Numbered from the stretch's first letter, positions 2,971-19,573 are shown. The stretch: 64,000 bases of DNA from a virus (IMGVR_UViG_3300032893_000009:1-64000); one strand, 5' to 3'. Numbers and translations are program-made. Notes: generated by a model not told the origin, from the letters alone.

Positions 2971-4386
2971 ATGGGCGAAGGGCTGCATCTCGCAGGTGTG
3001 CGTATCAAGGGGATCGTGGCGGGGACGCCGCACCCCAACCGTATGCGCTTTCGTGGTGTGCTGGTCCAGCTGGACACCCCCTCCAGTAAGCCCCCCAACG
3101 GCGCGCAAGGCCATCGAATTCTGGTGCCCGCCAGCGTGGCCAAGCGCCGTCTGAAGACTTTGATCGGCATGGGCCTTAATTACTCTCCCGATCTCGATGG
3201 TCATGCCCAGCGGCGCAAGGTGGGCGTGATTGATAAGGCGTGGATCGACGGCAAGGAGCTTTGCGTGGAAGGCCATGTGTGGAAGCATGACTTCCCCGAG
3301 GCCGAAAAGGATTTAAAGCAAAAGGGTCTGGGCATGAGCATGGAGCTGGGGGACGTGCGAGTGGACCACCCCAACTCCGATATATGGTGTCTGGACGACT
3401 TTCAGTTTTTGGGTGCCACGATACTATGGCGGAACTCCGCTGCGTACAACAACACGCACGCGATTGCGGCGCGAGCCGAGCAAAGGAGAGAGGACATGGC
3501 TGTGCAGAATAAGAAGACGAGAAATGCCGACCCGCAAGGCGAGCGCGTCGCGCAGATCGCCGCCGAAGCTGCCGCGAGTGCTGTGCGCAAGGGCACCGCA
3601 AAGGTTTTGGCGGTCCTCGAAGAGAACACCAAAACGCTGTCGGAAATTTCCGCACAGCATGAAGAGCTGGAATCTCGCCTCTCAGCTCTGGAAACCGGCA
3701 ACATCACCACCATCAATACTGCCAAGGACGACGCTTCGAGTTCTACATCGTCCTCGGCTTCCAGTGCCGATCAGGACTGGAAGGCTGCGCGCAGCGATGA
3801 CAGCAACGATGGCAGCACCTCCAGTGAAGACGACGGCACCGATGACAGCTCCGAGGATGAGGACGACTTGGAGAGCGCGGTGGACAAGGGCGATCTGGAG
3901 GAAGAGGACACCGATTTGGGACAGAAGGCTGGCCACGCCAACGATGACGCCAAGAACCGGGGAAGCGACGGAGCCGGTGATCTGGCCAAGTCGGTGGGCA
4001 AGACCGTCTCCAGCGCCCGCGAACTGGCGCTGCGCACGGCCAACAGGCAGCTCAGGACGCAGTTGCATGCGGCCAAGCAGCAGATGGCCAAGATGGAGCG
4101 GAAATTCGACCACAAGCTCGGCAAGCTGCAGGCGCAGGTGGCAGAGGCCTCCAGCAAGATGAGCCGCAAGTCGATCTCCCCGGAGATCAGCGCCATGTTG
4201 TCGAAGTCCAACATCGACGCCTCCGATCTGTTCCGCACCGGCAGCAAGTTGTCAGTGGCCGAGGTGGACGGCATCATTGCCTCTGCCGGGGTGCTGAATA
4301 CCCCGCAGGACAGGATTGCCATGAAGCAGTCTTTCCTCCGTGCGGGCCTGATGGACGAGGGCCGCGTGGAGCGCCATACCCGCTGA
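2971..4386 (+). CDS. Prohead protease / scaffold protein
   Basis: Directly upstream of the capsid gene. Globular N-domain (DGH...VGVI...GMSME), then an acidic low-complexity linker and a coiled-coil C-terminus. Confidence 0.7.
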   Translation: MGEGLHLAGVRIKGIVAGTPHPNRMRFRGVLVQLDTPSSKPPNGAQGHRILVPASVAKRRLKTLIGMGLNYSPDLDGHAQRRKVGVIDKAWIDGKELCVEGHVWKHDFPEAEKDLKQKGLGMSMELGDVRVDHPNSDIWCLDDFQFLGATILWRNSAAYNNTHAIAARAEQRREDMAVQNKKTRNADPQGERVAQIAAEAAASAVRKGTAKVLAVLEENTKTLSEISAQHEELESRLSALETGNITTINTAKDDASSSTSSSASSADQDWKAARSDDSNDGSTSSEDDGTDDSSEDEDDLESAVDKGDLEEEDTDLGQKAGHANDDAKNRGSDGAGDLAKSVGKTVSSARELALRTANRQLRTQLHAAKQQMAKMERKFDHKLGKLQAQVAEASSKMSRKSISPEISAMLSKSNIDASDLFRTGSKLSVAEVDGIIASAGVLNTPQDRIAMKQSFLRAGLMDEGRVERHTR

Positions 4387-4425: not shown

Positions 4426-5493
4426 ATGAAGGGCATGGCAGTATTCGTTGATCCGTCAAATAGCCCGATCTTGGCCCAGCTGGGGATGGTGGGACGGGGC
4501 TCGGCTCCAGTGGGTGAGATTTCGGCTGCAGCGGATTATCTGGCTCCCGGCGCGATTGAAGTAAACCGGTACGCGACGGAGATCGTGGACATGGTGCGCA
4601 GGCGCTTTGTCCTCGGTCAGCGCATCAATCAAACTCTGGCCACCGGCCAGCCGCACCGCTACTTTGAGCAGGTAGCGATTCCTACCGCGCAGTCTGTGAA
4701 CCCGCGCACTCTCGCAGCTACCGGTTCACAGCCCACGAGGCAGGAGCGCGTGGTCGGCCTGAAGGCCATCACCGCGCAGATCAACTACGGTCTGTTCGAC
4801 GTGGAGATCAACCAGCAGCAGGGCCAGTTTGCCTATCTTGAGGCAAAGGACCTGACCGACACCGTGGATGGCGTGCTCAAGCTGCACGACCAGAAGCTGT
4901 GGACGGGCGCGGACACCGACCTGTTCCTGAGCACCAGCAACGAGTATTACGGGATCAGCGGACAGATTTTCGCGGGTGCCAACTCCTCGCTGGGCCTGTA
5001 CGGCACCAACGGCGGCCCCACGGTCATCTCCGCCACCGGCTCGCTGGTGGACGGCTACAAGACTGCTGTTGCCGCGATGGCCAACCGCACAGACTTTGAA
5101 GTGCGGCCCACCGCCATCTACGGCAACCCGACGCTGCTCAACCTGTTCGATCAGGAAGTCTACGACAACAACCGCCAGCTCTTCTACAATCAGGTGGAAG
5201 TGCTTCCGGGCGTGGTCGTGAACGGCCTGCCGACGCAGGTGGGCGTGCTGCCGCTGGTTTCCGATCCGGCGCTCAGCAATGTCAGCGGTGCTGGAGGCAA
5301 GACCCAGTACACGGGCTTCATCCTCTCGGACATCGACATGATCAAGTATGCGTATCTGACGGACCCGCTGCCCAGAGTCTTCCAGCTCGGGCTGCTGGGC
5401 AACCTTTCCAGTCAGTACGTGGTGGTCAAGTTCGGTGCCCCGTTCGTGGAAGGTCCCGGCTACGCCCACCAGCCTGTGATCACAATCCGGTAA
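4426..5493 (+). CDS. Major capsid protein (HK97-type fold likely)
   Basis: 355 aa, strong RBS (aaggag), strongly biased codons, follows the scaffold and precedes a terminator. Confidence 0.8.
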   Translation: MKGMAVFVDPSNSPILAQLGMVGRGSAPVGEISAAADYLAPGAIEVNRYATEIVDMVRRRFVLGQRINQTLATGQPHRYFEQVAIPTAQSVNPRTLAATGSQPTRQERVVGLKAITAQINYGLFDVEINQQQGQFAYLEAKDLTDTVDGVLKLHDQKLWTGADTDLFLSTSNEYYGISGQIFAGANSSLGLYGTNGGPTVISATGSLVDGYKTAVAAMANRTDFEVRPTAIYGNPTLLNLFDQEVYDNNRQLFYNQVEVLPGVVVNGLPTQVGVLPLVSDPALSNVSGAGGKTQYTGFILSDIDMIKYAYLTDPLPRVFQLGLLGNLSSQYVVVKFGAPFVEGPGYAHQPVITIR

Positions 5494-6237: not shown

Positions 6238-9200
6238 ATGAGCCTGTCACCCACCCACGGAACGCTTGGCGGGGCATCCCCGTTCGATTTCGAGGCACTA
6301 CGGGACCAGATCATACAGGCCTTCAACCCTGATCAGCCCCGGGTTCCGGCAGGCAACCCCGGAGGCGGTGAATTTGCCAAGGGCGGCGCTCTCAGCGACA
6401 CCGAGATCGAGCGCAGGCTGAAAGCCCCCTCTCTGCCCAACCTGTTCAAGCAGCCCTCAAGCGCCCCATCTTCCCAGCGCAGCTCCACGCCCGAGGAACA
6501 GGCGGCGCGCATCCAGCAGGTGAAGGACAAGGCCAGCAGCGACCCCGAGTGGCACAATGCCGCGCAGGCGGTGGGTGCGCGCGGCGAGCACCGTGACGAC
6601 CCCGGGGTGATGAAGGATGGGCTGTATACGCCATCCGCGCAGGCCGAGAACGACAGGATCGCCAGCGAGTTTCTGACGTCTGCAGCACAGTCTCGCAGTG
6701 GAGAGCAGCCGGTGGCGGTCTTTCTGGTGGGCAAGCCGGGGGCAGGCAAGAGCGGTTTGATTGCCAAGCTGCAGGCGCGCGGTGATCTGCCTCCCACCGT
6801 GCCCATCAATGCTGATCTGGTGCAGGAGAAGTTGCCGGGATACACGCCCGGATTGACGGCGGCCTATCACGAGCGGGCCTGCGACATCGCCCGCAACTGT
6901 CTGACGCCTGCCGTGCTGGCCGGGCGCTACAACGCCTACTTCGACACCACCGACGGGGCCGACCGGCTGGAGAAGACCGCCCGGCAGTTCAAGGATGCCG
7001 GTTACCACATCGTTGTGGTTCATGCCGACGTGGACACCGCGACGTCGGTGGAACGTGTCTACAATAGATTCAGGCAGGATGGCCGCTACATTCCGCTGGA
7101 TATTGTCGAGGGCTACGGCGAGAAACCCAAGAATGCCTATGAGCGGCTGAAGGCCAGCGGCCTTGCCGACGAGTGGAGGGAATATGACACAACAGCCGAG
7201 GGATTTGCTGGAGGCCAATCTGTCGGACAGCCAGCGCGAGTTGTGGAGAAAGGCGCGCGCAGTTCCCGGCAAATACTCAGCCGATCCCGAGGAAGCGTGG
7301 GAGCAGGCGCTGCAGGAAGGGGCCGAGCTGGGAGCCGCGATATTGCGCGAAGGGCAAGGGCCGCCCAAGCCCGCGTAGCCCTGCTCGCCGCCTGCAACGA
7401 GTGGGGCATCCTTGGCGACGGTGAACCCGAGATCACCTCCTACAATCCAGATCAAGCGCGCGACAGTGCTGGGAAGTGGACATCTGGTGGCAGTGAACCC
7501 GAGTCGTGGGTAGGTTTTGATCTGGACGGCACGCTGGCTGAGTACCACGGCTGGAAAGGGTCGGATCACATAGGCGCACCCATCCCCCAGATGGTGCGGA
7601 TTATCAAGAAGCATCTGGCCGACGGCGACAAGGTGAAAATCTTCACCGCCCGGGTGGCCAACGATCCCAAGGGCGTCGCCAAGCAAGCCATTGAAAAGTG
7701 GTGCGTGCAGCACCTCGGCCAGAAGCTGCCGGTCACCTGTGTCAAGGACAGCGGCATGACCATGCTGTACGACGACCGCGCCGTGGCCGTGGTGCGCAAC
7801 GACGGCACGCTGCTCAACGATCCTAGCGAGATTGAGGCCAAGTGCGTCGCCTGTGAGTGTGGCGACTGCGTGATTCATGCCTATAGCGAGGATGAGGCCC
7901 GTGACGAGCATGGCCGCTGGACTGCAGGCATGGAGGAGAATCTGGCTGTCATGTCGCGCACCAGCCATGGCACCGGGCGGGAACCCGACCGTCCGGCACT
8001 AGCGGAGAGCGGCGACGCGCTGGCGGAGAAGGCCAACCAGAACTTCCGCGAGGCTGCCGACTGGGTGTGGCAGCACCGCGACCAGAAGCTGGATTCCGGC
8101 GCGACTGTGCGCCACACTATCGAGAAGCTGGGCAGCATCGTGAACCAAGGCCTGCTGGCTCCCGGGCAGAGCCCGTGGCGGACGTGGAACGATTCGGCCA
8201 AAGGCTACATCCCGGTGGAGAGGATGATGCCCCGGCTCTATCAGTTCTGCGACCAGCTGGCTGCGCGCATGAAGGCTGGCGACGATCCCAAGAGCACCGC
8301 CGCCTTTGTAGAACACGAGTTCAATGCCGAGATTCATCCGCTGGCCGACGGTATGGGCCGCACCACCATGCTGCTGGCGGGGATGACCTTGCTGCAGAAT
8401 GGCCACGAGCTGCCCCGCTATGGCGACCGGGCGGCCTTCTACAAGGGCATCACGTCGCCCGGCTGGGAGGGCTTCTACCACAGCCTGTTCGGGGTGCAGG
8501 CCTTCAGCCCCGACGAGGCCCGGGATGCCTACGGCAGGTGGACGACGGGCGGCGATGTGTATGTCTCGCCCAACGTGGAGGAAAACACCAAGTTCGACGA
8601 GGCCGTGAAGCAGGTGGACAGCGACCGGCAGAAGAACTTCGTCAGTCTAGCGCACCGGGTCTGTGAGGCGGTATTGGGACAGAGCGAGGTGAACAATGCG
8701 GTGGGCGCATGGGCCGACGGCGCGGAAAACTCCACCCACATCACCAGCCACACCGATAATGTCGAGGACCTGAAGTATGCCGGGGCGCTGCTGGCCAAGG
8801 CTGCTCAGCAGAAGGCCTTCCTGTGGTTCAGGCACGACCCGGCGGGCGGCTCGCTGCTCTACACCATTCGGACGGAAGAGGATTTGTCTACAATAGAGAA
8901 GCGCGTCCGGGGTGTCGCCGCTCTGGAGAACCACACCCTCGTGCCTCATTCGTGGGGCACCGAGATACAGGTGTTCGACAAGGACGGTTCTTCAGCGGAG
9001 GCCATCGGCGCATTTTCCGCCGCCCATGGTTACCGGACGACGGCGGCCCGGGGAGAGGGCAATTTCGAGGGCAGCTGGACCAGCCGCGAGGAAGGAGCGA
9101 AGGAATATGACCGAATCATCCAAGACTACGAAGAAGCCCACCCCGGAAGAGCTTACCGCGATTCTCTTACGTTTCAACATCGAGGACGTGACGAAGAAGG

Positions 9201-9798
9201 GCACGGGAGTGGTGATCGTGGGCGGAGTGAAGCCGCCCGAAAAGAAGGGCTGAGCCTCAGTCTCAGCGCGCACATCTACGCCGCCGTTCCTCCCAGCGAG
9301 GTGTTGCGCCGGGTGCGGGCACTGCCTACGGTGCCCGCTCCTAAAAGTCCGCATTGGTCCGCCCTGTGCCGGACCAAGGCTCGCCACTACGGCAAGTCGG
9401 TGTGGAAGAAAAATCCCATCAAGCTGGTGCGCAAGCCTGCCGACGCCGAGGCTTTCAAGCTGCTGCCGGTCAAGCTGCGCGATCATCTGGTCAGCGCCGC
9501 GCCCGTACAGAGGTTCAACCCCCGCGATCTGGTGACCAACCAGCCAGTGGTTTATCTGGCCGACCTCGAACACTTTCTGCGCCACGGCAAGGACCCCGAG
9601 CCGGTAATCGTGCTCAGGAGCAGCGCCGGGTTGTATGTTCACAACGGCAACCACCGCAGTACACTGGCATTGCTGTCCGGGCACAAGGTGCGGGCGCGCT
9701 ACGTGGACCTCGCCAAGGTTCCCGAGGTGCAGAACAGGATCAAGGTGGCGGCCAACATTCTCGACGCGAAGGAAGCCCTTCAGGAGGTGGGTGTATGA
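6238..9798 (+). CDS. Polyvalent effector polyprotein: zeta-toxin kinase + HAD phosphatase + Fic + unknown (SAM-lyase-like) + ParB-like
   Basis: GKPGAGKS/INAD (zeta-like P-loop), GFDLDGTLA...YDDR (HAD), HPLADGMGR (Fic-like), VHNGNHR (ParB/Srx-like). Four [FY][NS]xD[QE]xR..G.[WF] tags. Confidence 0.85.
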   Translation: MSLSPTHGTLGGASPFDFEALRDQIIQAFNPDQPRVPAGNPGGGEFAKGGALSDTEIERRLKAPSLPNLFKQPSSAPSSQRSSTPEEQAARIQQVKDKASSDPEWHNAAQAVGARGEHRDDPGVMKDGLYTPSAQAENDRIASEFLTSAAQSRSGEQPVAVFLVGKPGAGKSGLIAKLQARGDLPPTVPINADLVQEKLPGYTPGLTAAYHERACDIARNCLTPAVLAGRYNAYFDTTDGADRLEKTARQFKDAGYHIVVVHADVDTATSVERVYNRFRQDGRYIPLDIVEGYGEKPKNAYERLKASGLADEWREYDTTAEGFAGGQSVGQPARVVEKGARSSRQILSRSRGSVGAGAAGRGRAGSRDIARRARAAQARVALLAACNEWGILGDGEPEITSYNPDQARDSAGKWTSGGSEPESWVGFDLDGTLAEYHGWKGSDHIGAPIPQMVRIIKKHLADGDKVKIFTARVANDPKGVAKQAIEKWCVQHLGQKLPVTCVKDSGMTMLYDDRAVAVVRNDGTLLNDPSEIEAKCVACECGDCVIHAYSEDEARDEHGRWTAGMEENLAVMSRTSHGTGREPDRPALAESGDALAEKANQNFREAADWVWQHRDQKLDSGATVRHTIEKLGSIVNQGLLAPGQSPWRTWNDSAKGYIPVERMMPRLYQFCDQLAARMKAGDDPKSTAAFVEHEFNAEIHPLADGMGRTTMLLAGMTLLQNGHELPRYGDRAAFYKGITSPGWEGFYHSLFGVQAFSPDEARDAYGRWTTGGDVYVSPNVEENTKFDEAVKQVDSDRQKNFVSLAHRVCEAVLGQSEVNNAVGAWADGAENSTHITSHTDNVEDLKYAGALLAKAAQQKAFLWFRHDPAGGSLLYTIRTEEDLSTIEKRVRGVAALENHTLVPHSWGTEIQVFDKDGSSAEAIGAFSAAHGYRTTAARGEGNFEGSWTSREEGAKEYDRIIQDYEEAHPGRAYRDSLTFQHRGRDEEGHGSGDRGRSEAARKEGLSLSLSAHIYAAVPPSEVLRRVRALPTVPAPKSPHWSALCRTKARHYGKSVWKKNPIKLVRKPADAEAFKLLPVKLRDHLVSAAPVQRFNPRDLVTNQPVVYLADLEHFLRHGKDPEPVIVLRSSAGLYVHNGNHRSTLALLSGHKVRARYVDLAKVPEVQNRIKVAANILDAKEALQEVGV
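7184..7378 (+). CDS. Nested +1-frame 64-aa protein, candidate zeta-domain antitoxin
   Basis: GGAGG RBS then ATG. MTQQPRDLLEANLSDSQRELWRKA...PEEAWEQALQEGAELG reads as amphipathic helices, while the host frame here is R/G/A-rich low complexity. Confidence 0.55.
   Translation: MTQQPRDLLEANLSDSQRELWRKARAVPGKYSADPEEAWEQALQEGAELGAAILREGQGPPKPA
9107..9253 (+). CDS. Nested +1-frame 48-aa protein, candidate antitoxin/partner
   Basis: aaggag..aagga RBS and the same GGAATATGAC start context as 7184. Sequence MTESSKTTKKPTPEELTAILLRFNIEDVTKKGTGVVIVGGVKPPEKKG. Confidence 0.55.
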   Translation: MTESSKTTKKPTPEELTAILLRFNIEDVTKKGTGVVIVGGVKPPEKKG

Positions 9799-12700
9799 GC
9801 CTGCTGTCTCTGGCGATTCAGGAGCTGGCCGACACCATGGAGATGCACGCCTCCGCCTACGTGATCTATGCGTGGAACGAGGAGGATCACCCCCGCGACG
9901 CGCACGGCAAGTTTGCCACCAAGGGCGGCACCGCCGCCGTGAACACCCCTGACAAGGCTGCCGCGCGGCTGGCCAATCTCGGCTACCGGCTGGACGAGGC
10001 CAAGCAAAGCTCCGATGTGTGGCGGGATCAGCGGGGGCGCACGGTGCGGGTATCGAAGTACGATGCGCAGCACCCCGGCAATGTCAACCTTCGCCGCTAC
10101 CGGATGTTCGGCCCGGATGGCGAGAGGCTGTATCAGGGCCACCAGCTGCCTGAGCTGGAGCGGTTGCACGGCAAGCAGCCGCCAGCCCCGCCACAGGCCC
10201 CTGCCGCCCCGGCAAAGCAGGTTGTGGCACCGGCTCCCAAGGCCCCCGCTCCGGCTGCCCCGGCGCAGAACGCTCTGGCCAAGCAGGCCGCCGCCGTGGT
10301 CAGCCTTGCCATGCAGAAGAAGCTGGCCGACGCAGGCTTTGCCCTGAAGGGCATGGTGGACCCCGCACAAGTAATGGGCGGACGGGCAGTGGTGGCCTTC
10401 GTGCATCCCTCCGGTGCCGAGCTGCGAATTTCCACCAATGCTGAGGGCAAGACGATCTATCAGATTTCCATAGGCAGGGACGAGCAGGGCAAACTCCGGC
10501 TGGCCCCCGCGCAGCTGCACAGGCCTTTTGGTGCCGACGGCCAGCTGCGCCCGGATATTCAGTGGGCTCTCAGCAAGCCGCCTGCCGGGCTCACCCAAGC
10601 GCCGGTCAAGCGTGGCGACGCTCCGCCGGAAGGCACCCTGCATGAGAGAGCGCACAATGCTCTGATCGCCGCAGGCTTTGTTTACAAGGGCACCCTTAAC
10701 AAGCGGGCCTATTACGCTCTGCCTGACAAGAATGTGTTTGTCCTTGCCTCTGACCGCCGTGACGATTCTGTGTACAAGGATGGCAAGAACATCACCTACG
10801 CCGCACTCGATCAGGGCATGTTCCTGTTCCGGCGAAACAAACAAGGCAATACTTACCTGCCCAACACCTTCCGCGACGCAGTTGGCCTGCCGCGCAATCC
10901 AGTTGGCGTGATAGACGAGCAGAAGGGCTATGAACTGGCATTTCCCAGAGCCGAGGATCGGGCCGCGCTGGACAAGGCCGGGTTCACCGTAACCAAGGCC
11001 GAGAGCGACGAGGCGGGCAATGTCTCGATTGTGCTGACCCATCCCAGCGGAGTGAGGATCGAAAAGGGCGCTAGTATGTATGCCCGTGTCTTTGATAAAG
11101 ACGGCAAGGACATGGGGCAGATAACCGGGGTGCGCGACCAATTCGGCTACTTGTACAAGGGCATTCGCCAAGCCATCGGCATGCCCGATCCCGACTTGAG
11201 AATGCCCACAGCCAAGCCCGCCGACGAAACAGAACCGGAGTGGCGATATGAGCGTGGGGCGCATAGCGTGCTGGTGGGTGCTGGCATACAGTACATGGGC
11301 ATGGGCCGCGACAAGGACGGGAACACTTATGCAAGTTACAAGGCCCCCAACGGAACGCGCCTGCAGATGTTTGCCGACCGGGGCGCGGTGGCCTTTGACA
11401 AAGACGGCAATCAGGTGGGGAGGTGGCTTAACGGCGCAGCCATCTATGGCTCAAACAGGCAGGGCAATTATTATCTGCGCCCCGAATTCCGTACCGCCAT
11501 GGGCCTCCCCAAGCCACAGTTCACTGGCGACGCGCAGGCTGAGTTCAACAGACTGGTTGACAGAGAGGATCAGAAGGCGCTGGCCGACGCCGGGTTCAAG
11601 CTGGATCGTGTGGAGCTGAATGACAAGGAAGAACCCTACGCGATGCTGACGCATCCGAGCGGCGTCACGATGCGCTACAACGGTAATGACTACATTCTTG
11701 AAAAGGGAGGTCAACCCATTGCCGGACCCAACAGGCACCTTGCAGACAACTTCGGTTTTGTGAACAAGGACATCCGGCAGGCCATCGGCATGCCCGACCC
11801 CGACTTACGCATCCCCACTGCGAAGCCTCCGAGTGCAGCCGACGAGCCACCTTACGAGTTGATCGGCAGCATACGCATGAAGCAGGCAATGCTAAGCAAC
11901 GGCTTCGTCTATCAGGGTGTGGGCCGGGACAAGGACGGCTGGCAGTATGCCAAGTACACCGGTCCCAACGGGGTGACGCTGCGGGCCACGGCCAGCCCAG
12001 ATAACGGGTACAAGGCCAAGGGCTACGACAAGGACGGCAATCTGCTGGGCGAGTGGGGCAAGGTCTACGACCGCAACCGGTTCAACAATGGCTATCTGAT
12101 TCCCGAGGTGCGCAAGGCGCTGGGTGTCCCCCTCCCTGCTTATAGGGGAGGGATGGTGCCGGACGCTGTTCTCAGAACCCTGATCAATTCTGACGCCCGC
12201 AATGCCCTGATCGGGGCTGGATTCGTAGTCAGCCATGTAACGATGAACGACAAGGAAGAGCCTACGGTGGTCCTCACTCACCCCAACGGCGTGCAGATGA
12301 TCATAGACGGCGATGGCTACAAACTGCAGCACGGGTCGCAGGCCGGTCCACGCGACGGCATGGGAATGATGCTGGACAAGTTTGGCTTCCTGAACAAGGA
12401 AATCCGTCAGGCTGCTGGACTGCCGGAGCCGGACCTGAAGCTGCCCACGCAGATAGTGAGGTCGATGCCCAACGTCATCTCCGGTGGGCTGAAAGACGCG
12501 CTGAAGAATGCAGGCTTTGTTCTGCAGGGCGTGGGCCGTGACAAGGATGGCGTGGACTACGCCAAGTTCCTGCACCCCACGGGTGCGGTGGTAAGGATTG
12601 ACGAGAACAAGAACATCTACGTGACCCCTCCGGGCGGCAAGGAAGTGCAGTTTCCCGATCAGCATCCCTACGAGCGCGACGCCAAGAACATTCCGAATCT

Positions 12701-13589
12701 GAAGATTGGCCTGCGCGAGGCTGCCGGAATGCCGACGTGGTGGCTGTCCGCCCCCGGCACCTCGGATATTCCCCAGCCGGTCATTCCGCCCCGGGTTCCG
12801 GCCCCCGTGGTGCCCAGTGAGTCGGTACAGCCCGATCTGCCTATACCCGATCTTCCGCCGCGCGACCCGTCAATTGCGATTGAGAAGGCGCTGTCCACAG
12901 GCCAATCCACCGGGAACAAGAACGCACGCGGCGGCATCAACGCCCTGTACAAGATCAATGTGGCCGGAGTCGGGGAGTGCGGCTTCAAGCCTAATAATGG
13001 GGAAGACACACGCTGTGCGCAGTGCTGGGCTGTCGAGGGCGACGCGGGCGCGCAGGCCAAGCGCGAGGTGGCGGCTTGGCAGATCGCCAAGATGGTGGGG
13101 ATGCGGGATTTGATGGCCCCCCGCGCCATGCGCGAGCACGACGGGGAGCTCGGGGTTGTTTTTCCTTGGACCCCGGGAGAAGTGGCAGGCAATGTCAGCG
13201 CGTCCAAGCGTTTCGACGGCGAGCAGGATTGCGCGCGCTGCGCGGCTTACGACTACGTGGTGGCCGACGGCGACCGGCACAGTAACAACTGGCTCATACA
13301 GGACGATGCTTCAGAGCCCAAAATTCAGCTCATCGATCACGGGCTGATCATTCCCAACGACGACAAGATGAACAGCACACAGGGATTTCTTGCCGAGATG
13401 ATGGACGCGCAGGAACCGGGTCTGCGGCCCTACGAAATGGCGCAGCCCTTTGTGGACAAGAAAAACGACATCATCACCTATCTCGCCAATCAGGGATTCA
13501 GCAAAGAGGCGATTCATGGCGTGGCGGTGCGTATCGATGATTTGGCTCGGGCCAAGCAATGGAACGACCTGAAGTATAAGGCTTGGTAG
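9795..13589 (+). CDS. Head-cargo protein with eight ~100-aa repeats and a C-terminal HipA/PI3-PI4K-like kinase
   Basis: Start at the ATGA overlap with GGAGG RBS. WNEEDHPRDAHGKF tag; LxxAGF...HPxG repeats; FKP..E, REVAAW, DRHSNN and IDHGL kinase motifs. Confidence 0.8.
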   Translation: MSLLSLAIQELADTMEMHASAYVIYAWNEEDHPRDAHGKFATKGGTAAVNTPDKAAARLANLGYRLDEAKQSSDVWRDQRGRTVRVSKYDAQHPGNVNLRRYRMFGPDGERLYQGHQLPELERLHGKQPPAPPQAPAAPAKQVVAPAPKAPAPAAPAQNALAKQAAAVVSLAMQKKLADAGFALKGMVDPAQVMGGRAVVAFVHPSGAELRISTNAEGKTIYQISIGRDEQGKLRLAPAQLHRPFGADGQLRPDIQWALSKPPAGLTQAPVKRGDAPPEGTLHERAHNALIAAGFVYKGTLNKRAYYALPDKNVFVLASDRRDDSVYKDGKNITYAALDQGMFLFRRNKQGNTYLPNTFRDAVGLPRNPVGVIDEQKGYELAFPRAEDRAALDKAGFTVTKAESDEAGNVSIVLTHPSGVRIEKGASMYARVFDKDGKDMGQITGVRDQFGYLYKGIRQAIGMPDPDLRMPTAKPADETEPEWRYERGAHSVLVGAGIQYMGMGRDKDGNTYASYKAPNGTRLQMFADRGAVAFDKDGNQVGRWLNGAAIYGSNRQGNYYLRPEFRTAMGLPKPQFTGDAQAEFNRLVDREDQKALADAGFKLDRVELNDKEEPYAMLTHPSGVTMRYNGNDYILEKGGQPIAGPNRHLADNFGFVNKDIRQAIGMPDPDLRIPTAKPPSAADEPPYELIGSIRMKQAMLSNGFVYQGVGRDKDGWQYAKYTGPNGVTLRATASPDNGYKAKGYDKDGNLLGEWGKVYDRNRFNNGYLIPEVRKALGVPLPAYRGGMVPDAVLRTLINSDARNALIGAGFVVSHVTMNDKEEPTVVLTHPNGVQMIIDGDGYKLQHGSQAGPRDGMGMMLDKFGFLNKEIRQAAGLPEPDLKLPTQIVRSMPNVISGGLKDALKNAGFVLQGVGRDKDGVDYAKFLHPTGAVVRIDENKNIYVTPPGGKEVQFPDQHPYERDAKNIPNLKIGLREAAGMPTWWLSAPGTSDIPQPVIPPRVPAPVVPSESVQPDLPIPDLPPRDPSIAIEKALSTGQSTGNKNARGGINALYKINVAGVGECGFKPNNGEDTRCAQCWAVEGDAGAQAKREVAAWQIAKMVGMRDLMAPRAMREHDGELGVVFPWTPGEVAGNVSASKRFDGEQDCARCAAYDYVVADGDRHSNNWLIQDDASEPKIQLIDHGLIIPNDDKMNSTQGFLAEMMDAQEPGLRPYEMAQPFVDKKNDIITYLANQGFSKEAIHGVAVRIDDLARAKQWNDLKYKAW

Positions 13590-13604
13590 AAGGACTGGCG
13601 GAAC

Positions 13605-14732
13605 ATGGATTTAAACTGCATCTTCTACGTCACGCATTTCGACGGGAAGCGGGTCACCCAAGTTCCCGAGGCGAAGGTCATGCTGCGCGGCAGCAGCATC
13701 ACCGGGCTCGCGCTCAATTCCCACTTCGACGTGGATGACTTTATACGGGACCCGCTGCGCATCGGGAGCATTGCCATTCCGAAGAGCGATCCTGTGGCGT
13801 GGATGCGGGCGCTGCCCCATGTCTACGGCGGCAGCTACCTGCGCGCCGAATTGCGGGACGCGAATGGCAAGCCGGTCAGTGGGGAGGGCGACTTTGATCC
13901 CGGCGGCGCGCTGTACAAGTACCTGCCCAAGGAGCCTGTGCCTGCCAGCGTGGTGAGAGCTGCTGAAGCTGCTGTCGAGGTGGAGATGCAGCGCACTGCC
14001 AAGAACCTCGACGCAGTATCGCCTCCCGGCTGGCGGGGAACGACCGAGCACATGAAGGATCACCCGGAGATCACCAATCCATATGCTCTGGCGTGGTGGC
14101 AATACAAACGCGGCGAGACCTCGCACGTGGACGAGCCACCGGCCACCCCCAAGGTGCATGTGAGCAGGAAGACCGCAAAGGCGCGGCAGAAGTCGCTCGC
14201 CAAGAAAAAGGTGAAGAGCGCCGCCGACGGACTCGGCCCCGGTGCGATCCTGCGCAACTCAATCCGTGAGAAGGCGCTGGGAGTGGCTGCCAAGGCCTAC
14301 AAGCTGTCCGGCTGCACCTCGTTCCAAGGCCTGCCCATCAGCATCGAGACCAAGAAGGGCGAGCGGCGCAGCGGCACCAACCACGACGGCACGCCGTGGA
14401 GCGTGCTCATGCCCGCCGACTACGGCTACATCAAGGGCACCAAGGGCGTGGATGGCGACGAGGTGGACTGCTTCATCGGCCCGCACAAGGATGCCAAGTT
14501 CGCCTACATCTTTCACATCGAGAACGACGCCGATCACTCTTATGACGAGGACAAATGTTTTCTCGGTTACAAGTCCGATGAGGAGGCCATGGTGGTGGCC
14601 AAGCAGGCCTACGACAACTGGGACAAGATATACCGCTCCACCACCATGCTGCCTATGTGGGAGTTCACTCAGAAGGTTTTGCATACCGGCGAACTGAAGA
14701 AGCCGGGTAAGATACACGCGGGGGCACTATGA
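13605..14732 (+). CDS. Multi-domain protein with C-terminal inorganic pyrophosphatase-like (InPase) domain
   Basis: ISIE..KG..RSG...W...M.ADYGYI.GT.G.DGDEVDCFIGP...DEDK motif of polyvalent-protein InPase. Separate ~85-aa N-domain ending LPHVYGGSYLRA. Confidence 0.75.
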   Translation: MDLNCIFYVTHFDGKRVTQVPEAKVMLRGSSITGLALNSHFDVDDFIRDPLRIGSIAIPKSDPVAWMRALPHVYGGSYLRAELRDANGKPVSGEGDFDPGGALYKYLPKEPVPASVVRAAEAAVEVEMQRTAKNLDAVSPPGWRGTTEHMKDHPEITNPYALAWWQYKRGETSHVDEPPATPKVHVSRKTAKARQKSLAKKKVKSAADGLGPGAILRNSIREKALGVAAKAYKLSGCTSFQGLPISIETKKGERRSGTNHDGTPWSVLMPADYGYIKGTKGVDGDEVDCFIGPHKDAKFAYIFHIENDADHSYDEDKCFLGYKSDEEAMVVAKQAYDNWDKIYRSTTMLPMWEFTQKVLHTGELKKPGKIHAGAL

Positions 14733-15544
14733 GCCAGCCATTCATTCCGTGCTACGTGTTCGAGTCCGAGCTGCAGACCTTCGGACTGCCCAGCTCCGTT
14801 GCGCAGCCGGACATTATGAATCTGGTCTATCTGGCCTCCAGCATCATCGACGAGGCCTGCGGGCGGCTGGATGGCGATGGCAACGGCTCGCTGGTCTTCA
14901 CCACCTATGCACAGCGCATTCTGATGCAGACGCGCAACCGCAATCTGGCCTTCATTCCCATCACGCCCCTCGCACCGGTCAGTCAAACTGTCTACGACGA
15001 TCTCGTGTCCTTGGCCAGCGCCACGGGAGTGCCCAATTACTACCTTACCGGCAATCTGCAGGTGAGCACCCAGTACGGGCCTTGGGGCACGCTGTCGGGG
15101 CTTATCGGTGCCAGTGGACGGTACGGCTACACCCGGCAGGATATGAGCATCGCCTACCCCGACCTGTTCGCCTTTATCAACCCTCTCAATCTGGTGACCA
15201 TGTTCGGCGGTCCAGCACCGTGGGTTCCCATCGACATCACGCAGACGGATTACGATTTCAAGTCCGGCGAGGTGTGGGTGCCTGCCGGGCTGCAGCTGCA
15301 GCGCTATTCCGAGGTGATGTTCATATACACCGCCGGGTTCGATCCCCGGGCCATGCCCATTGGCGTCAAGCTGGCTTGTGCCTGTCTGGTGAAGAACGCC
15401 ATGGCACGCGGCGACGGTACCACGGCGCTGACTTCGATGCGATTGGGACGCTCGGGAGCTAATATGGAATTCGTGCCCGGCTCGCTGATTGATCCGACCG
15501 TGGACAATTTGCTCACCCCTTACCGCGTGGTCCGGGCACTTTAG
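14729..15544 (+). CDS. Head-tail adaptor / connector
   Basis: ASSIIDEACGR, YTAGF..MP..VKLAC and LLTPYR motifs typical of SPP1 gp15-like adaptors. Confidence 0.7.
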   Translation: MSQPFIPCYVFESELQTFGLPSSVAQPDIMNLVYLASSIIDEACGRLDGDGNGSLVFTTYAQRILMQTRNRNLAFIPITPLAPVSQTVYDDLVSLASATGVPNYYLTGNLQVSTQYGPWGTLSGLIGASGRYGYTRQDMSIAYPDLFAFINPLNLVTMFGGPAPWVPIDITQTDYDFKSGEVWVPAGLQLQRYSEVMFIYTAGFDPRAMPIGVKLACACLVKNAMARGDGTTALTSMRLGRSGANMEFVPGSLIDPTVDNLLTPYRVVRAL

Positions 15545-15555
15545 GGAGCTTTTGG

Positions 15556-16110
15556 ATGCACACCGACAGATACATCGAGCGTTTTTGGAAAAAGGTTGTC
15601 GTCTCCGGCGACAATGAATGCTGGATTTGGTCTGCTGGTAGGGACAATGACGGCTATGGCAGGTTTTGGGATGGGACCAGGTTGCGGGGGGCGCACCAAT
15701 TTTCTTGGGAGATACACAACGGCCCTATACCAGCCGGGTTGTGCGTTTGCCATACTTGCGACGTTCGTCCGTGCGTCAACCCCTCGCACCTGTTTTTAGC
15801 CACTAATGAGCTGAATTCTGCCGACAGGGCAGCTAAGGGGCGGTCAGCGTCTGGTGACCGCCACGGCTCTAGGACCCATCCAGAGTGCCTTCAGCGTGGG
15901 GATGCTCATTGGGTTAACCGCCGTCCAGAGTGTGTGCCGTGCGGGGCGCAGCGCGCAGACTCTAAATTGACAGAGGATGACGTACGAGAAATCCGCAAAC
16001 TTCATGCTGCTGGTGTACATTTGAGCCGTCGGCTGGCCTCCCATTTTGGTGTTGACCGCACCTTACTTTGGCGAATCGCAAAGCGTAAAACTTGGAGGCA
16101 CGTGCTCTGA
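15556..16110 (+). CDS. HNH homing endonuclease
   Basis: RFW.KV, CWIW, GYG, VCHTCD.R.CVNP.HLFL and a C-terminal HTH; lower GC than flanks. Confidence 0.9.
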   Translation: MHTDRYIERFWKKVVVSGDNECWIWSAGRDNDGYGRFWDGTRLRGAHQFSWEIHNGPIPAGLCVCHTCDVRPCVNPSHLFLATNELNSADRAAKGRSASGDRHGSRTHPECLQRGDAHWVNRRPECVPCGAQRADSKLTEDDVREIRKLHAAGVHLSRRLASHFGVDRTLLWRIAKRKTWRHVL

Positions 16111-16598
16111 TGGGCTACGGCGGACTCAATATCGGCCCCGGCATACAGCGCTTGATCGACGCGCAGATGCGCTATCTCAACGCCGCGCGTGTCCCGGTGT
16201 TCATGCGCTTCCGCAACTTCACCCCGCCGGACAACCAGATGTACGCGCAGCTGGGCTACGTCATCAATCCGCCCAGCCCAGAGCCGCTGACCACCGGGAC
16301 CACCGACGTGCAGATCACCCCGACGCCCGGCACCCGCATGGTGTCCATGCACAACATCGGCATGAGCCAAGGCAAGCTGCGCTTCGGGGCGAGGGACTTC
16401 ACCATCTCCCAGAGCTTCGTGGCCCTTCAGCAGCTTGCTCTTGGATTGGCAACTCCCGATCAGTTATGGTTGTCGCAGCAATTCGTGGGCCTCGTGGCCT
16501 ACGGAGTTTTGTGGACCGTGGAAATGTACGCGTCCGACGACGTGGGCGGTGTTCCGGTGGTCTGGACATGCACCTGCAATGCGAACGAGCAGAGGTAA
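16110..16598 (+). CDS. Putative head closure / neck protein
   Basis: Position in the neck module, beta-rich composition, TGATG overlap start. Confidence 0.5.
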   Translation: MGYGGLNIGPGIQRLIDAQMRYLNAARVPVFMRFRNFTPPDNQMYAQLGYVINPPSPEPLTTGTTDVQITPTPGTRMVSMHNIGMSQGKLRFGARDFTISQSFVALQQLALGLATPDQLWLSQQFVGLVAYGVLWTVEMYASDDVGGVPVVWTCTCNANEQR

Positions 16599-16601
16599 GG
16601 C

Positions 16602-17081
16602 ATGAACCTGACGGCGGCGGTGGAAACACGGAGCAGGGGTCGCCTGATACAGGCCGGGGCCAACGACCGCTTTGCGCCGGTCCATCAGGGCGCGCACATG
16701 CACTTTATGAAGATCGGCTACATGCACACCGGCAACAAGATGCGCGGCGGCATATGCACCAGCGAGTATTTCAAGAACAAGGGCGGCGACACCCGCAATG
16801 TTTCGGTGCAGGCTGACGGGACATATGTGAAGACCTGCAACACGGCCAGCGGCACGCGGCGCAGCCGGGGCAAGATGGATGCCAGTGGAATTACGGCGTG
16901 GCGCGAGGGCGAGCCGCGTGACAAGATAGGGGAGTGGACCCGCGACAAGAAACAGGGCGGGCATGGCGGGCACTCTATGGGCCACCACGGGCATTCCCAT
17001 GGGGCTCACCATGAGCGTGGCAAGCATAGTGGGCGCATGGAGAGAAAGATGCAGCGCCACCGGCAACGCAGGAGTGAGTAA
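16602..17081 (+). CDS. Small basic His-rich head-cargo protein
   Basis: Contains the ITA-WREGEPRDKIGEW tag and a GHGGHSMGHHGHSHGAHH tract. Confidence 0.6.
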   Translation: MNLTAAVETRSRGRLIQAGANDRFAPVHQGAHMHFMKIGYMHTGNKMRGGICTSEYFKNKGGDTRNVSVQADGTYVKTCNTASGTRRSRGKMDASGITAWREGEPRDKIGEWTRDKKQGGHGGHSMGHHGHSHGAHHERGKHSGRMERKMQRHRQRRSE

Positions 17082-18230: not shown

Positions 18231-18698
18231 ATGGAGCTGAAGAAGGATTATCGCGGACGCGATCTGTCCCGGCAGAAGTTTTACCAGCATGATTTCTCGG
18301 GACAGGACCTGTCGAAGATGAAGCTGCGGCAGAGCCTGTTTCACCGCTGCAACTTCGACAACGCAGACCTCACCGAGGCTGATTGCGAGGGTTCGGAATT
18401 CTTCGGCAGCACCTTCCGCGACACGGTGATGTACCGGACCAACTGTAAGGATGCGAAACTGGCGAGTACCATATTCGAGCCCAAGGATTGTTTCGGCCTG
18501 ACGCTTACCATGCAGTGCAAGACATTCGACAAGATGAAGGTCAGCCCGATGTGGTGGTACGCTTGGCTCATGTTCGCCTCCCTGATGATCCCGGGGAACG
18601 TCAAGGAGTCGGAAGAGCTGCAGAACAGGCTGATACAGGCCGTGGGTGCCGAGCGGTATTTACGGCTTCGTACACTCTTAGCCAAGAGGGAACTCTGA
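18231..18698 (+). CDS. Pentapeptide repeat protein
   Basis: RDLSR-QKFYQ-HDFSG-QDLSK...CNFDN-ADLTE-ADCEG-SEFFG-STFRD 5-residue periodicity. Confidence 0.85.
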   Translation: MELKKDYRGRDLSRQKFYQHDFSGQDLSKMKLRQSLFHRCNFDNADLTEADCEGSEFFGSTFRDTVMYRTNCKDAKLASTIFEPKDCFGLTLTMQCKTFDKMKVSPMWWYAWLMFASLMIPGNVKESEELQNRLIQAVGAERYLRLRTLLAKREL

Positions 18699-18715: not shown

Positions 18716-19573
18716 ATGGCATTTACTAGCCAAAGCAGTTCGGAATTGCAGCGTAGGCTCTGGAGCGATGCAGCCCACAGAGCATTGCGTATACAGGCTC
18801 TACGTGAGACTGCAGCGGCTACTAACCCGACTCCTAAGCCAAAGCAAAAACCTCCTGCTGGAATGTATTGGCGGCGGTTTGGTTTGACTGGGTGGGCCTT
18901 GAAGCCTATCGGATGGTCCCCGACGCAGGGGTGTAAATGGAGCGAAGAAACTAAACAAAAGCAGTCTTTGGGGAATATAGGCAAACACACCACTTTTAAG
19001 CGTACAGACGCAGCGAAACGAAAAATTGCAAGGGCTTCCCGGCGTGCTTGGCGCAACGCGGAATCTGCTAATAATAGAATGCTTAAAATGGCCGAGGCGC
19101 GGGAGCGGCCAGAAACGAAGGAACGCTTTTCGCAGGGGATAAAGAGGTCCTTCACCCCGGAACGTCGTGAACAGTATCGACGAATGCTCTGCGAATCTTA
19201 TGCTGTAGGGCAACGCACGCCGTCCAACGTACCACATCCGGGCTACCACGGTGAGCATGTAGCCACTCGTTTTGGGACGCTCTTCGCTTCCAGCAGCTGG
19301 GAGGCAGCTCGGCTTCGCTTTCTGGATAAGGATGCGTCAGTGGTGCGCTTGGAAAAGGAGCCTTTTGTTTGCCCATACAGCTTTGAGGGACGGCTTCGCA
19401 ACTACTTCCCTGACTTTCTTGTGGAGCGCGTGGATGGCTCTATTACAATCGAGGAGGTTAAGGGCTGGCGCGGCCCAGAGTGGGCAGCAAAGGAGCGTGC
19501 TGTCAAACGTCTGTGTAAACGTCGTGGATACACTTTCAGGCTGCTGGACTCGTTGGAGGTGTGTGTTCTATGA
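18716..19573 (+). CDS. NUMOD3-repeat + TnsA-like PD-(D/E)XK homing endonuclease
   Basis: SEETKQK repeats; SSWE...EPF...Y.PDFLV...IEEVKG; AT-richer than flanks. Confidence 0.85.
   Translation: MAFTSQSSSELQRRLWSDAAHRALRIQALRETAAATNPTPKPKQKPPAGMYWRRFGLTGWALKPIGWSPTQGCKWSEETKQKQSLGNIGKHTTFKRTDAAKRKIARASRRAWRNAESANNRMLKMAEARERPETKERFSQGIKRSFTPERREQYRRMLCESYAVGQRTPSNVPHPGYHGEHVATRFGTLFASSSWEAARLRFLDKDASVVRLEKEPFVCPYSFEGRLRNYFPDFLVERVDGSITIEEVKGWRGPEWAAKERAVKRLCKRRGYTFRLLDSLEVCVL

Follow-up and report, generated by a model that had tools for sequence, protein, structure and literature searches.

The locus described here raises the question of what a short peptide does that is repeated in front of one enzyme module after another in the head-gene region of a phage. 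The source record is a virus with terminal repeats from a metagenome and is uncultured; a cultured relative was sought and none was found. The window, the whole stretch of DNA that was analysed, comprises 64,000 nt of the 118,881-bp genome. An earlier note on this DNA had described six copies of a boundary signature in three genes, and had read the signature as a head-loading signal of effectors that are cut apart by a prohead protease and injected into the host. The peptide is best explained as a short linear tag at the junctions of phage effectors whose genes lie in head-gene clusters, and it may give a clue to how phages separate and deliver mixtures of enzymes.

The tagged proteins and their genes

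Translation placed all six copies in frame on the + strand of three ORFs, exactly where the earlier note had located them. The first ORF (6238..9798, +) encodes polyvalent protein 1 (P0001, 1186 aa), which was analysed by translation and by Pfam and PHROG searches. Its 28-aa leader is followed by a variant form of the tag, FNPDQPRVPAGNPGGGEF (copy 0, 6322..6375, +), and a zeta kinase module (PF06414, E=5e-19). Copy 1, YNPDQARDSAGKW (7441..7479, +), located by translation and pattern scans, precedes a HAD-like phosphatase module with a DxDGT signature (phrog_1238, 1.5e-6; 2226 stand-alone homologues) and ends 11 residues ahead of the first strand of the HAD-like fold in the AF2 model. Copy 2, YSEDEARDEHGRW (7882..7920, +; low pLDDT), precedes a Fic-like module with a weak PF02661 match below the cut-off (E=0.0065). 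Copy 3, FSPDEARDAYGRW (8503..8541, +), stands before the first of two final modules without assigned identity, which are joined to each other without a tag. Homologues of this protein (P0004-P0007) share its modules but differ in their order and number, with a tag at every join.

The ATG of the second ORF (9798..13589, +) overlaps the stop codon of the first by one base. According to translation, Pfam searches and repeat analysis, its product, polyvalent protein 2 (1263 aa), consists of a 21-aa leader, copy 4, WNEEDHPRDAHGKF (9873..9914, +), three to four repeats of ~200 aa each and a PI3/PI4-kinase-like C-terminus (PF00454, 29 bits vs a cut-off of 27.1). An N-terminal tag is likewise present in its syntenic homologue in L002. 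Domain searches detected no peptidase domain in either polyvalent protein. Further downstream are encoded an InPase-domain protein of 375 aa (13605..14732, +; PF18823, E=1.2e-32), whose PHROG matches are minor head and virion proteins and in which neither an HMM nor a regex scan found a tag, and a head-tail adaptor (14729..15544, +; phrog_442, E=3.1e-8) that is 78% identical to the L002 gene product. The third tagged ORF (16602..17081, +), analysed by translation and comparison with L002, encodes a small protein of 159 aa, of which the first 97 are conserved in L002. Copy 5, WREGEPRDKIGEW (16899..16937, +), and a His-rich tail come next, whereas the L002 counterpart has a different Cys/His tail without a full tag.

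Upstream, the block is bordered by genes for a predicted prohead protease with a scaffold-like tail (2971..4386, +) and for a candidate major capsid protein (4426..5493, +). The latter has no sequence match in Pfam, PHROG or PDB; its assignment as SU10-like with an HK97 fold comes from Atlas (feature score 0.98), where it has 199-205 of 256 features in common with SU10_MCP/HK97 capsid clusters, and it is 84% identical to the product of the syntenic L002 gene. The polyvalent genes sit downstream of this gene pair and ahead of the head-tail adaptor gene, as the earlier note had it for the whole block, but the sixth tag copy is located past the adaptor and an HNH gene. The module identities proposed at that time held for the zeta kinase, the HAD-like module, the repeats with the kinase-like part and the His-rich tail, while the Fic module is left with the weak match given above.

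Distribution, position and conservation of the tag

In a six-frame scan, the strict pattern [PAH]RD..G[RKE][WF] had five matches in the window; the whole genome contains the same five and none elsewhere, as compared with a mean of 0.14 and a maximum of 2 in 100 mononucleotide shuffles of the genome. Copy 0 misses this pattern but fits a recurrent variant, ...DQPR[VI]PAG.P.GG.[WF], which is found at like positions in P0018, P0044, P0046 (twice), P0063, P0068 and P0124, among others. The tag is widespread, as a profile built from 13 copies and searched against 1.84 billion cluster representatives revealed. It retrieved 1,448 protein clusters with E<=1e-3, of which 279 reach E<=1e-10, mostly from uncultured phages, and the best 150 of the 1,448 tag-bearing clusters have 2-10 copies apiece. 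The consensus is K-Y-S-P-D-Q-P-R-D-E-H-G-R-W-T-S-G-G, and the tag has two parts, a lineage-specific flank of the form hydrophobic-x-(K or A) and a near-invariant core, [YFW]-[SND]-P-D-Q-P-R-D-x-x-G-[RK]-[WF]-T-x-G-G, in which R, D, G and W are 97-99% conserved. No description of this tag was found in Pfam, NCBIfam or the literature searched.

The claim that the tag precedes each module was borne out by its position in other proteins. In 149 proteins with 633 copies in total, copies are spaced at a median of 241 aa. In 56% of these proteins no more than 60 aa separate the N-terminus from the first copy, and the distance from the last copy to the C-terminus is at least 117 aa at the 5th percentile. 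In complete ORFs with a single copy (n=90), the tag is within 60 aa of the C-terminus in 4%. Some tags come right at the start of the protein, after leaders of only 1-10 residues, and some natural proteins begin with M-F-N-P-D-Q-P-R-D, which is the position at which the earlier note had placed the cut.

The modules behind the tags are extensively shuffled: 730 modules fall into 461 families, and neighbours are nearly always different. P0004 and P0005 are one whole module apart, with the join within the tag. The tag is an add-on to the module, because none of 120 stand-alone homologues of the HAD-like module has one. In the AF2 model the HAD core has a pLDDT of 92-98 and both flanking tags have values of 45-65 without regular structure; the tag is predicted to sit in a disordered, glycine-rich linker ahead of each cargo module.

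A portal, MuF, TerL, HK97-type protease, DUF2213 or capsid gene is present in 71 of 106 IMG/VR stretches with a tag ORF. Portals with a tag account for 30 of the 141 IMG/VR tag ORFs and have 28-573 residues beyond the tag; a MuF domain occurs in 4 of these 141 ORFs and in 5 proteins of the working set of 156, which consists of the listed matches and nine others. In viral contigs the tag often comes after a portal, MuF or HK97-type protease domain, and there are prophage proteins that consist of an HK97-type protease, the tag and a toxin-like C-terminus. ART-PolyVal, LPD1, zeta, 2H and TopoIB domains were found in eight other tag-bearing proteins.

Although the earlier note had regarded the tag as a feature of virion genes, and it does lie mostly in head-gene clusters, some toxin-like genes on chromosomes, with housekeeping genes as neighbours, carry it too. 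A scan of bacterial genomes yielded 58 tag ORFs that lack a head domain, and 47 of these belonged to one family, in which a conserved N-domain of ~115 aa is followed by the tag and then by a toxin-like C-terminus that varies (Tox-REase-5, CdiA-CT RNase A-like and others). At the three Nitrospirillum loci whose neighbours were scanned, the tag gene lies amid Hsp70, glutaminase, DUF885 and LysR genes. A tag is also missing from some cargo: from the InPase protein, from the internal repeats of polyvalent protein 2, at the last junction within P0001, and from P0008, a portal-HAD-InPase fusion. Considering the chromosomal carriers and the untagged cargo in the block, the tag is thus neither required for nor exclusive to virion cargo.

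The head protease and possible roles of the tag

The phage is predicted to encode a head protease just upstream of the capsid gene, because the product of the gene at 2971..4386 folds like gp21/assemblin. AF2 modelling from a 32-sequence alignment (pLDDT 88-97 for aa 21-160) and Foldseek assigned the T4 gp21/herpesvirus assemblin fold to aa ~20-165; behind this domain the sequence is first acidic and of low complexity, and the C-terminal part is a long coiled coil. The best Foldseek match was T4 gp21 (5jbl; E 1.7e-4, prob 1.00, TMt 0.47), with the HCMV, HSV and KSHV proteases coming next, and the alignment has invariant His, Ser (GMSME) and AAY columns. Atlas leads were S77/S78/DUF2213 clusters (0.92); the Pfam models for S78, S77 and ClpP did not detect the protein. 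In each of the nine near-complete tag-bearing viral records examined, S78, S78_2 or DUF2213 was matched at E<=0.01, in seven of them above the curated cut-off; this count covers tag-bearing records alone.

Next to a gp21-like protease, 9 of 13 copies have A directly before the aromatic of the tag (-7), next to an HK97-type protease 22 of 30 copies have K there, and beside DUF2213 a D-A flank is found (D at -8 in 11 of 11, A at -7 in 8 of 11), an association that is drawn from related contigs and may partly reflect shared ancestry. The -7 class agrees in 75% of pairs within one protein, in 45% of pairs from the same module family and in 36% overall; its mean purity within proteins is 0.86 vs 0.61 after shuffling and was reached by none of 500 shuffles. 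The flanks in the window have the form I/V/L-x-A or S before F/Y/W; Glu directly before the aromatic is absent from them, and they do not conform to an L/I-x-E or S/A/G-x-E consensus.

These features are compatible with a pathway in which the polyproteins would be incorporated into the procapsid, where the head protease with the gp21/assemblin fold would cut immediately before the aromatic residue of each tag. The cut would strip the short N-terminal leader and part the modules from one another, and each freed enzyme would bear the conserved core as its new N-terminus. Subsequently, the enzymes would exit the capsid together with the DNA at infection. That the head protease cuts before the aromatic and leaves the core on each enzyme is put forward tentatively, with a probability that we place slightly short of even. 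The head-loading and protease reading of the earlier note is partly supported, by the pre-module position, the head-gene clusters, the gp21-fold protease, the protease-linked flank and the natural proteins that begin at the proposed cut, while a core that is independent of the protease, the chromosomal carriers and the untagged cargo speak against its narrow form. The invariant core is common to lineages with three different protease families, and a protease-specific site does not account for it; a head-loading signal may be one of several candidate roles for the core. It is doubtful that tailed-phage capsids have in the tag a portable cargo signal of universal use, by which an HK97-fold procapsid would take up any protein that follows it and the head protease would free that protein, with the core as a handle for retention and then for expulsion with the DNA, and by which chromosomal tagged toxins would be loaded in trans. 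If this were true, these toxins would ride the capsids of resident prophages or gene-transfer agents to neighbouring cells.

The tag could also work in the recipient cell, in phage polyproteins and chromosomal polymorphic toxins alike. It would then be a general pre-effector motif read by a conserved bacterial factor, be it a protease, a chaperone or a route of translocation across the membrane, and this factor would release, refold or import the modules after delivery. The core is near-invariant despite very different hosts, portal and protease families, the same tag parts the N-domain from the variable C-termini in the chromosomal genes, and it is predicted to be disordered and exposed, all of which would suit such a reader. 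We nevertheless consider this rather unlikely: it accounts neither for the uniform flank within each genome and its variation with the protease family of the neighbouring phage gene nor for the frequent position of the tag behind internal head proteins, and no candidate host factor was identified. The N4 virion RNA polymerase and P1 DarB are packaged and injected whole, and the polyproteins might be as well, with the tag as an uncleaved structural linker or domain insulator that prevents interference between modules or travels as a shuffling unit. Its location in flexible, Gly-rich linkers and at every shuffling joint would fit, and full-length transfer of some polyvalent proteins is stated in the main text of Iyer et al. 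(2017, PMC5512222). A passive linker, however, needs no conservation of R, D, G and W at 97-99%, would not persist where a leader of only 1-10 residues stands before it and would not bear a genome-specific flank, and we regard this explanation as improbable.

A head protease would be unneeded if the tag cleaved itself or were cut by a peptidase module inside the polyprotein. Although this would explain the lineage-independent core and the chromosomal toxin carriers, and autoproteolysis by metallopeptidase (MPTase) domains is proposed for polyvalent proteins in the main text of PMC5512222, it is very unlikely: the two polyvalent proteins have no detected peptidase domain, the motif is too short and too disordered for a catalytic fold, and no known self-cleaving dipeptide is present throughout, N-P occurring in some copies only. 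Finally, the extreme shuffling of modules and the breakpoint of module gain or loss within the tag (P0004 vs P0005) would be expected if the tag were kept at the DNA level as a recombination joint for in-frame cassette exchange. This is already disfavoured by the codon comparison, in which identical codons shared between tag copies numbered 25 vs 25.7 expected from codon usage in the window and 105 vs 94.7 expected in L002, and the peptide is kept across taxa that differ in codon usage. The synonymous sites of the copies are not homogenised, which argues for selection on the peptide, and we give a recombination joint almost no credence.

Comparison with known systems

As described in the main text of Iyer, Burroughs, Anand, de Souza and Aravind (2017, PMC5512222), polyvalent proteins are giant, contain many effector domains, are encoded beside virion genes, are sometimes fused to portal or MuF domains and are predicted to be packaged and injected, with embedded MPTase domains proposed to process them. 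The two polyvalent proteins of the window are alike in having at least two unrelated effector domains per polypeptide and in being encoded in a viral record among virion genes; from the repertoire of the class (InPase, ART-PolyVal, LPD, zeta, 2H, TopoIB), InPase (PF18823) is encoded in the adjacent gene. They differ with respect to the MPTase processing proposed in that main text, as a peptidase module was not detected here. Term searches of the main text of PMC5512222 found no junction motif or linker, and its supplementary files might show one. The new element compared with known polyvalent proteins is the conserved peptide preceding each module.

In MuF polymorphic toxins of temperate phages, an internal head protein carries a variable C-terminal toxin (Jamet et al. 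2017, PMC5576092); no mention of a junction motif, linker or cleavage was found in the main text of that paper. Some tag ORFs hold a MuF domain as well. In contrast, the window proteins are without one, as neither PF04233 nor PF06152 was found in the two polyvalent proteins and an ad hoc MuF HMM had no match genome-wide. Pre-toxin junction motifs, such as VENN of CdiA and DPxGL of Rhs, mark the point at which a conserved carrier gives way to a toxin domain that varies. Exactly this carrier-motif-toxin layout is found in the chromosomal Nitrospirillum/Azospirillum tag family, and comparison of P0003 with its L002 homologue reveals a conserved N-terminal part, the junction motif and a variable C-terminus. 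The tag differs from the pre-toxin motifs in sequence, in its number of up to 10 per protein and in its occurrence mainly in phage head modules, and the window polyproteins are multi-module rather than single-toxin proteins.

Encapsulin cargo-loading peptides are short and disordered, occur on diverse cargo enzymes of an HK97-fold shell and are usually C-terminal and single. Compared by description, the tag is similar in being short and disordered and in sitting on a range of enzymes that would be associated with an HK97-fold shell, and it differs in having no sequence likeness to these peptides and in not being a usually C-terminal, single element. The internal proteins and Alt of T4 carry a capsid targeting sequence that is cut by gp21, with cleavage consensus sequences of L/I-x-E in T4 and S/A/G-x-E in phiKZ. 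The system proposed here would resemble those of T4, phiKZ and SPN3US in its head-carried, injected enzymes, which include an ADP-ribosyltransferase in such phages, and in the removal of a short N-terminal peptide by a head protease of the same fold. The sites of T4 and phiKZ end in Glu and the tag flank does not, and cargo proteins there are single, whereas here polyproteins have a tag before each module. Moreover, the conserved part of the tag would remain on the product.

Tagged polyproteins in the head gene region

The virus record comprises 118,881 bp with direct terminal repeats, and the window covers its first 64 kb. The genes around the tagged block are all encoded on the + strand and begin with an adaptor resembling GP4 gp77 (2616-2924; PF23148). 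This is followed by a 471-aa protein, assigned from its AF2 model and Foldseek as a putative head maturation protease with a scaffold-like tail (2971-4386), and by a candidate major capsid protein of 355 aa (4426-5493), for which the ESM Atlas returned SU10/HK97 capsid proteins (0.98). Next are polyprotein 1 (P0001; 6238-9798) and polyprotein 2 (9798-13589), the start of the latter overlapping the stop of the former, an InPase protein (13605-14732; PF18823, 1.2e-32), a head-tail adaptor (14729-15544; phrog_442), an HNH endonuclease (15556-16110; PF13392 and several PHROGs), and a small His-tailed protein (16602-17081). The syntenic IMG/VR contig L002 has the same gene order minus the HNH gene. 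Because of this absence, the HNH gene appears to be a mobile insertion between the genes for the head-tail adaptor and the structural protein that follows.

The portal is encoded at the opposite end of the genome, outside the window (108,665-112,918, +). The 1418 codons of its open frame include two regions that match the 615-aa portal of L002 (aa 416-654 and aa 790-1418), which points to an insertion in the portal gene or to its partial duplication. A 780-aa protein is encoded ahead of the adaptor-like gene (277-2619). It is His-rich near aa 367-414 (with a spurious HRCT1 match) and has neither a family assignment nor an L002 homologue. Two further genes of the structural region encode a pentapeptide-repeat protein (18231-18698; PF00805) and a protein whose N-terminal domain is TnsA-like, of the endonuclease type (18716-19573; PF08722). 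Comparison of the capsid, 780-aa, and 471-aa proteins with PDB sequences gave nothing useful.

The tag is a short peptide consisting of a lineage-specific flank and, from an aromatic residue onwards, a near-invariant core. The six copies reported in the earlier note are found in the translations of three ORFs exactly where they had been placed. In a six-frame scan, the pattern [PAH]RD..G[RKE][WF] matched five of these copies and nothing further in the window, and the same five only in the whole genome, compared with a mean of 0.14 matches and a maximum of 2 in 100 shuffles. The copy at 6322, FNPDQPRVPAGNPGGGEF, falls outside the strict pattern. Its form, ...DQPR[VI]PAG.P.GG.[WF], is seen again at corresponding sites of other proteins with the tag and, judged by sequence, this copy is a recurrent variant and no degenerate accident. 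No tag was found in the InPase protein of the window, in the 3-4 internal repeats of gene 2, or at the last junction of P0001.

A profile built from 13 tag copies was searched against 1.84 billion protein representatives and matched 1,448 of them at E<=0.001, 279 at E<=1e-10, and 14 at E<=1e-30. The best 150 of the 1,448 are 514-3,849 aa long with 2-10 matched stretches each. The consensus over 633 copies from 149 proteins, with the window and its two closest relatives left out, is K-Y-S-P-D-Q-P-R-D-E-H-G-R-W-T-S-G-G-G, in which R, D, G, and [WF] are each conserved at 97-99%. Copies are spaced at a median of 241 aa. The first is no further than 60 aa from the N-terminus in 56% of the proteins. 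Leaders in front of it are short and diverse, some having just 4-10 residues, and the last copy is followed by at least 117 aa at the 5th percentile. Very probably, the tag is a real marker that occurs widely and shows where modules start in head-associated polyvalent effectors.

Module shuffling and the nature of the tag

Homologues of polyprotein 1 contain the same modules in other orders and numbers, with a tag at each join. One of them (P0006) has the order HAD, TopoIB, an unknown module, NUDIX, and kinase, another (P0007) the order Fic, a thioredoxin-reductase-like module, and zeta. Two further proteins, P0004 and P0005, are distinguished by a single complete module whose join falls inside the tag. 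Cutting 150 proteins at their tags yielded 730 modules in 461 families, and neighbouring modules nearly always differ. A Pfam search of eight tag-bearing proteins found ADPrib_exo_Tox and ART-PolyVal (ADP-ribosyltransferases), LPD1, acylphosphatase, zeta, 2H, TopoIB, and DUF7178. The tag-bearing proteins are polyvalent proteins as described by Iyer et al. 2017 (PMC5512222), who proposed an MPTase-based processing of such proteins. Neither the tag motif nor a domain-boundary element was found in the main text of that paper, the supplementary alignments of which may show the motif, and the main text of Jamet et al. 2017 (PMC5576092) mentions no motif, linker, or cleavage. Literature searches with tag motif strings returned no relevant paper.

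The HAD-like module of polyprotein 1 (7483-7878, about 115 aa) has 2,226 stand-alone homologues of about 110-135 aa at E<=0.001, and none of the 120 listed bears the tag. In an AF2 model of tag-HAD-tag, the module reached a pLDDT of 92-98, while both tags remained at 45-65 without regular structure. On these two results, the reading that the tag is part of the module fold was rejected. Fusions with a portal and InPase (P0008) contain the same HAD-like module, and cultured phages of Rhizobium, Ralstonia, Burkholderia, and Vibrio encode it in non-structural regions. The tag profile gave only chance matches to PDB sequences (E at least 0.05), and in Pfam and NCBIfam searches at E<=10 with three tag segments of 30-33 aa and three tag-bearing proteins, nothing covered the tag.

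With joins falling at tags, the tag might be a joint for recombination at the DNA level. This explanation was rejected, since identical codons between copies are as frequent as codon usage predicts (25 observed versus 25.7 expected in the window, 105 versus 94.7 in L002). Synonymous sites have diverged accordingly, so that it is the peptide that is conserved and not the DNA.

The head protease and the flank of the tag

The 471-aa protein has 116 homologues and consists of a conserved N-terminal domain of about 150 aa with an invariant His and an invariant Ser (GMSME), followed by an acidic stretch and a coiled coil. Pfam S78, S77, and ClpP do not detect this protease. The AF2 model of the conserved domain (pLDDT 88-97) has T4 gp21 as its top Foldseek match (5jbl; prob 1.00, E 1.7e-4, TMt 0.47), with herpesvirus assemblins next. 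The predicted fold indicates a maturation protease of the phage head that is joined to a scaffold-like tail. All 32 aligned homologues share an invariant motif, A-A-Y-x-x-T-x-x-x-A (aa 157-166), just behind the final strand of the protease domain. It is similar to the junction between A and Y in the tags of this lineage and could be a self-release site of the protease.

The residue just before the aromatic, two places before S/N (position -7), varies with the neighbouring protease. It is A in 9 of 13 copies beside a gp21-like protease and K in 22 of 30 copies beside an HK97-type protease, and neighbours of DUF2213 have a D-A flank (D at -8 in 11 of 11 copies, A at -7 in 8 of 11). Copies within one protein share the same -7 class in 75% of pairs versus 36% overall; for copies from different proteins that share a downstream or upstream module family, the value is 45%. 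The mean purity of -7 per protein is 0.86 versus 0.61 after shuffling and was reached by none of 500 shuffles. This uniformity within proteins indicates that the flank belongs to the genome and not to the module. A genome-bound flank would be expected for a site matched to the genome's own protease, and shared ancestry could contribute to it.

On the account with most support, put forward tentatively, the tag is a two-part junction, with flank and aromatic as a head-protease site and the core staying on the freed enzyme. The phage's own head protease would separate leader and modules at flank and aromatic, and the invariant core would remain on each released enzyme, where it might, for example, help to retain or eject the enzyme or act in the recipient cell. 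Some natural proteins start with M-F-N-P-D-Q-P-R-D, the N-terminus predicted from a cut before the aromatic. On less probable rival explanations, the tag might act as a signal used in the recipient cell, persist as an uncleaved linker, or be an element of self-cleavage. For the core itself a protease alone is not a sufficient explanation, since the core is common to lineages with different proteases. A head-loading signal, as proposed in the earlier note, is one of several candidate roles for the core. The head-gene context described below supports the proposal in part, but the presence of the tag in chromosomal genes and its absence from some of the cargo in the window speak against a role in the capsid only.

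Phage and chromosomal settings of the tag

One narrow DNA pattern for DQPRDxxGRW was found in at least 120 IMG/VR stretches. These and the window and L002 contain 146 tag ORFs, with 14 of the IMG/VR stretches listed having no tag ORF by HMM. The commonest neighbours are three portal families, MuF, the large terminase, DUF2213, a PF09950 capsid protein, and an HK97-type prohead protease family. At least one of them is present in 71 of 106 stretches with tag ORFs among the matches listed, the absence of a head gene being weak evidence because the context HMMs, built ad hoc, represent just ten families. Among the matches listed, 30 of 141 tag ORFs are portals bearing the tag, with 28-573 residues beyond it. 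The portal HMMs derive from these very loci and contain C-terminal extensions, which makes the count of tags after the portal match, 14 of 32, unreliable. Some contigs encode several adjacent small proteins with a similar leader, the tag, and differing C-termini, one of which is an Alt-like ART. In two prophage proteins (L204:2430-3785 and L217:191-1306), a prohead protease of canonical HK97 type precedes the tag and a C-terminal domain that resembles a toxin. Here the head protease appears to act as cargo carrier.

Among 25 longer viral records with a tag, nine reach a completeness of at least 90%. Each of the nine has an S78, S78_2, or DUF2213 match at E<=0.01 (seven above the curated cut-off) and none an S77 match, figures that refer to tag-bearing records alone. 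A megablast search with 20 kb and tblastn searches with the protease-scaffold and a 30-aa tag segment found no cultured relative, and tblastn with P0001 and two other compared proteins, P0013 and P0029, found single modules only (such as stand-alone HAD, portal-fused InPase, and zeta in haloviruses). Three portals of cultured phages related to a tag-bearing portal lack the tag. In plasmids, the matches to P0013 were confined to InPase modules, most of them in genes with a phage portal or prohead protein annotation; a polyvalent protein of the conjugative type was not among them.

In bacterial genomes, the same DNA pattern, which favours GC-rich taxa because of its CGN arginine codons, was found in at least 120 stretches, and 70 of those listed have a tag ORF. 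Head genes are present in 21 of these 70, among the matches listed. Of 58 tag ORFs without a head domain among the bacterial matches listed, 47 belong to one family, which occurs in Nitrospirillum, Azospirillum, and other genomes, mostly of Alphaproteobacteria (loci L133, L157, L168, L175, L193, L208, and others). Its members consist of a conserved N-domain of about 115 aa (MDGWQRRYRLSNGPGG...) without Pfam, NCBIfam, or PHROG match, the tag, and variable C-termini including Tox-REase-5 and a CdiA-CT RNase A-like domain. At the three Nitrospirillum loci scanned (L133, L168, and L193), the neighbours are housekeeping genes, encoding Hsp70, glutaminase, DUF885, LysR, and cupin proteins.

With polyvalent proteins, a phage is believed to bring its first weapons into the cell. 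A tag preceding modules in at least 1,448 protein clusters provides a concrete handle on how these giants are packaged, separated, and released, as it predicts cut sites and which neighbouring protease cuts them. It also offers an easy way to set the limits of unknown effector modules by the hundred, as in the 461 families from 150 proteins. If the core were a loading or ejection signal, chosen proteins could be loaded into phage capsids. Finally, the chromosomal tag family shares the layout of polymorphic toxins, and the presence of the tag in such toxin genes ties phage cargo to polymorphic toxin systems.
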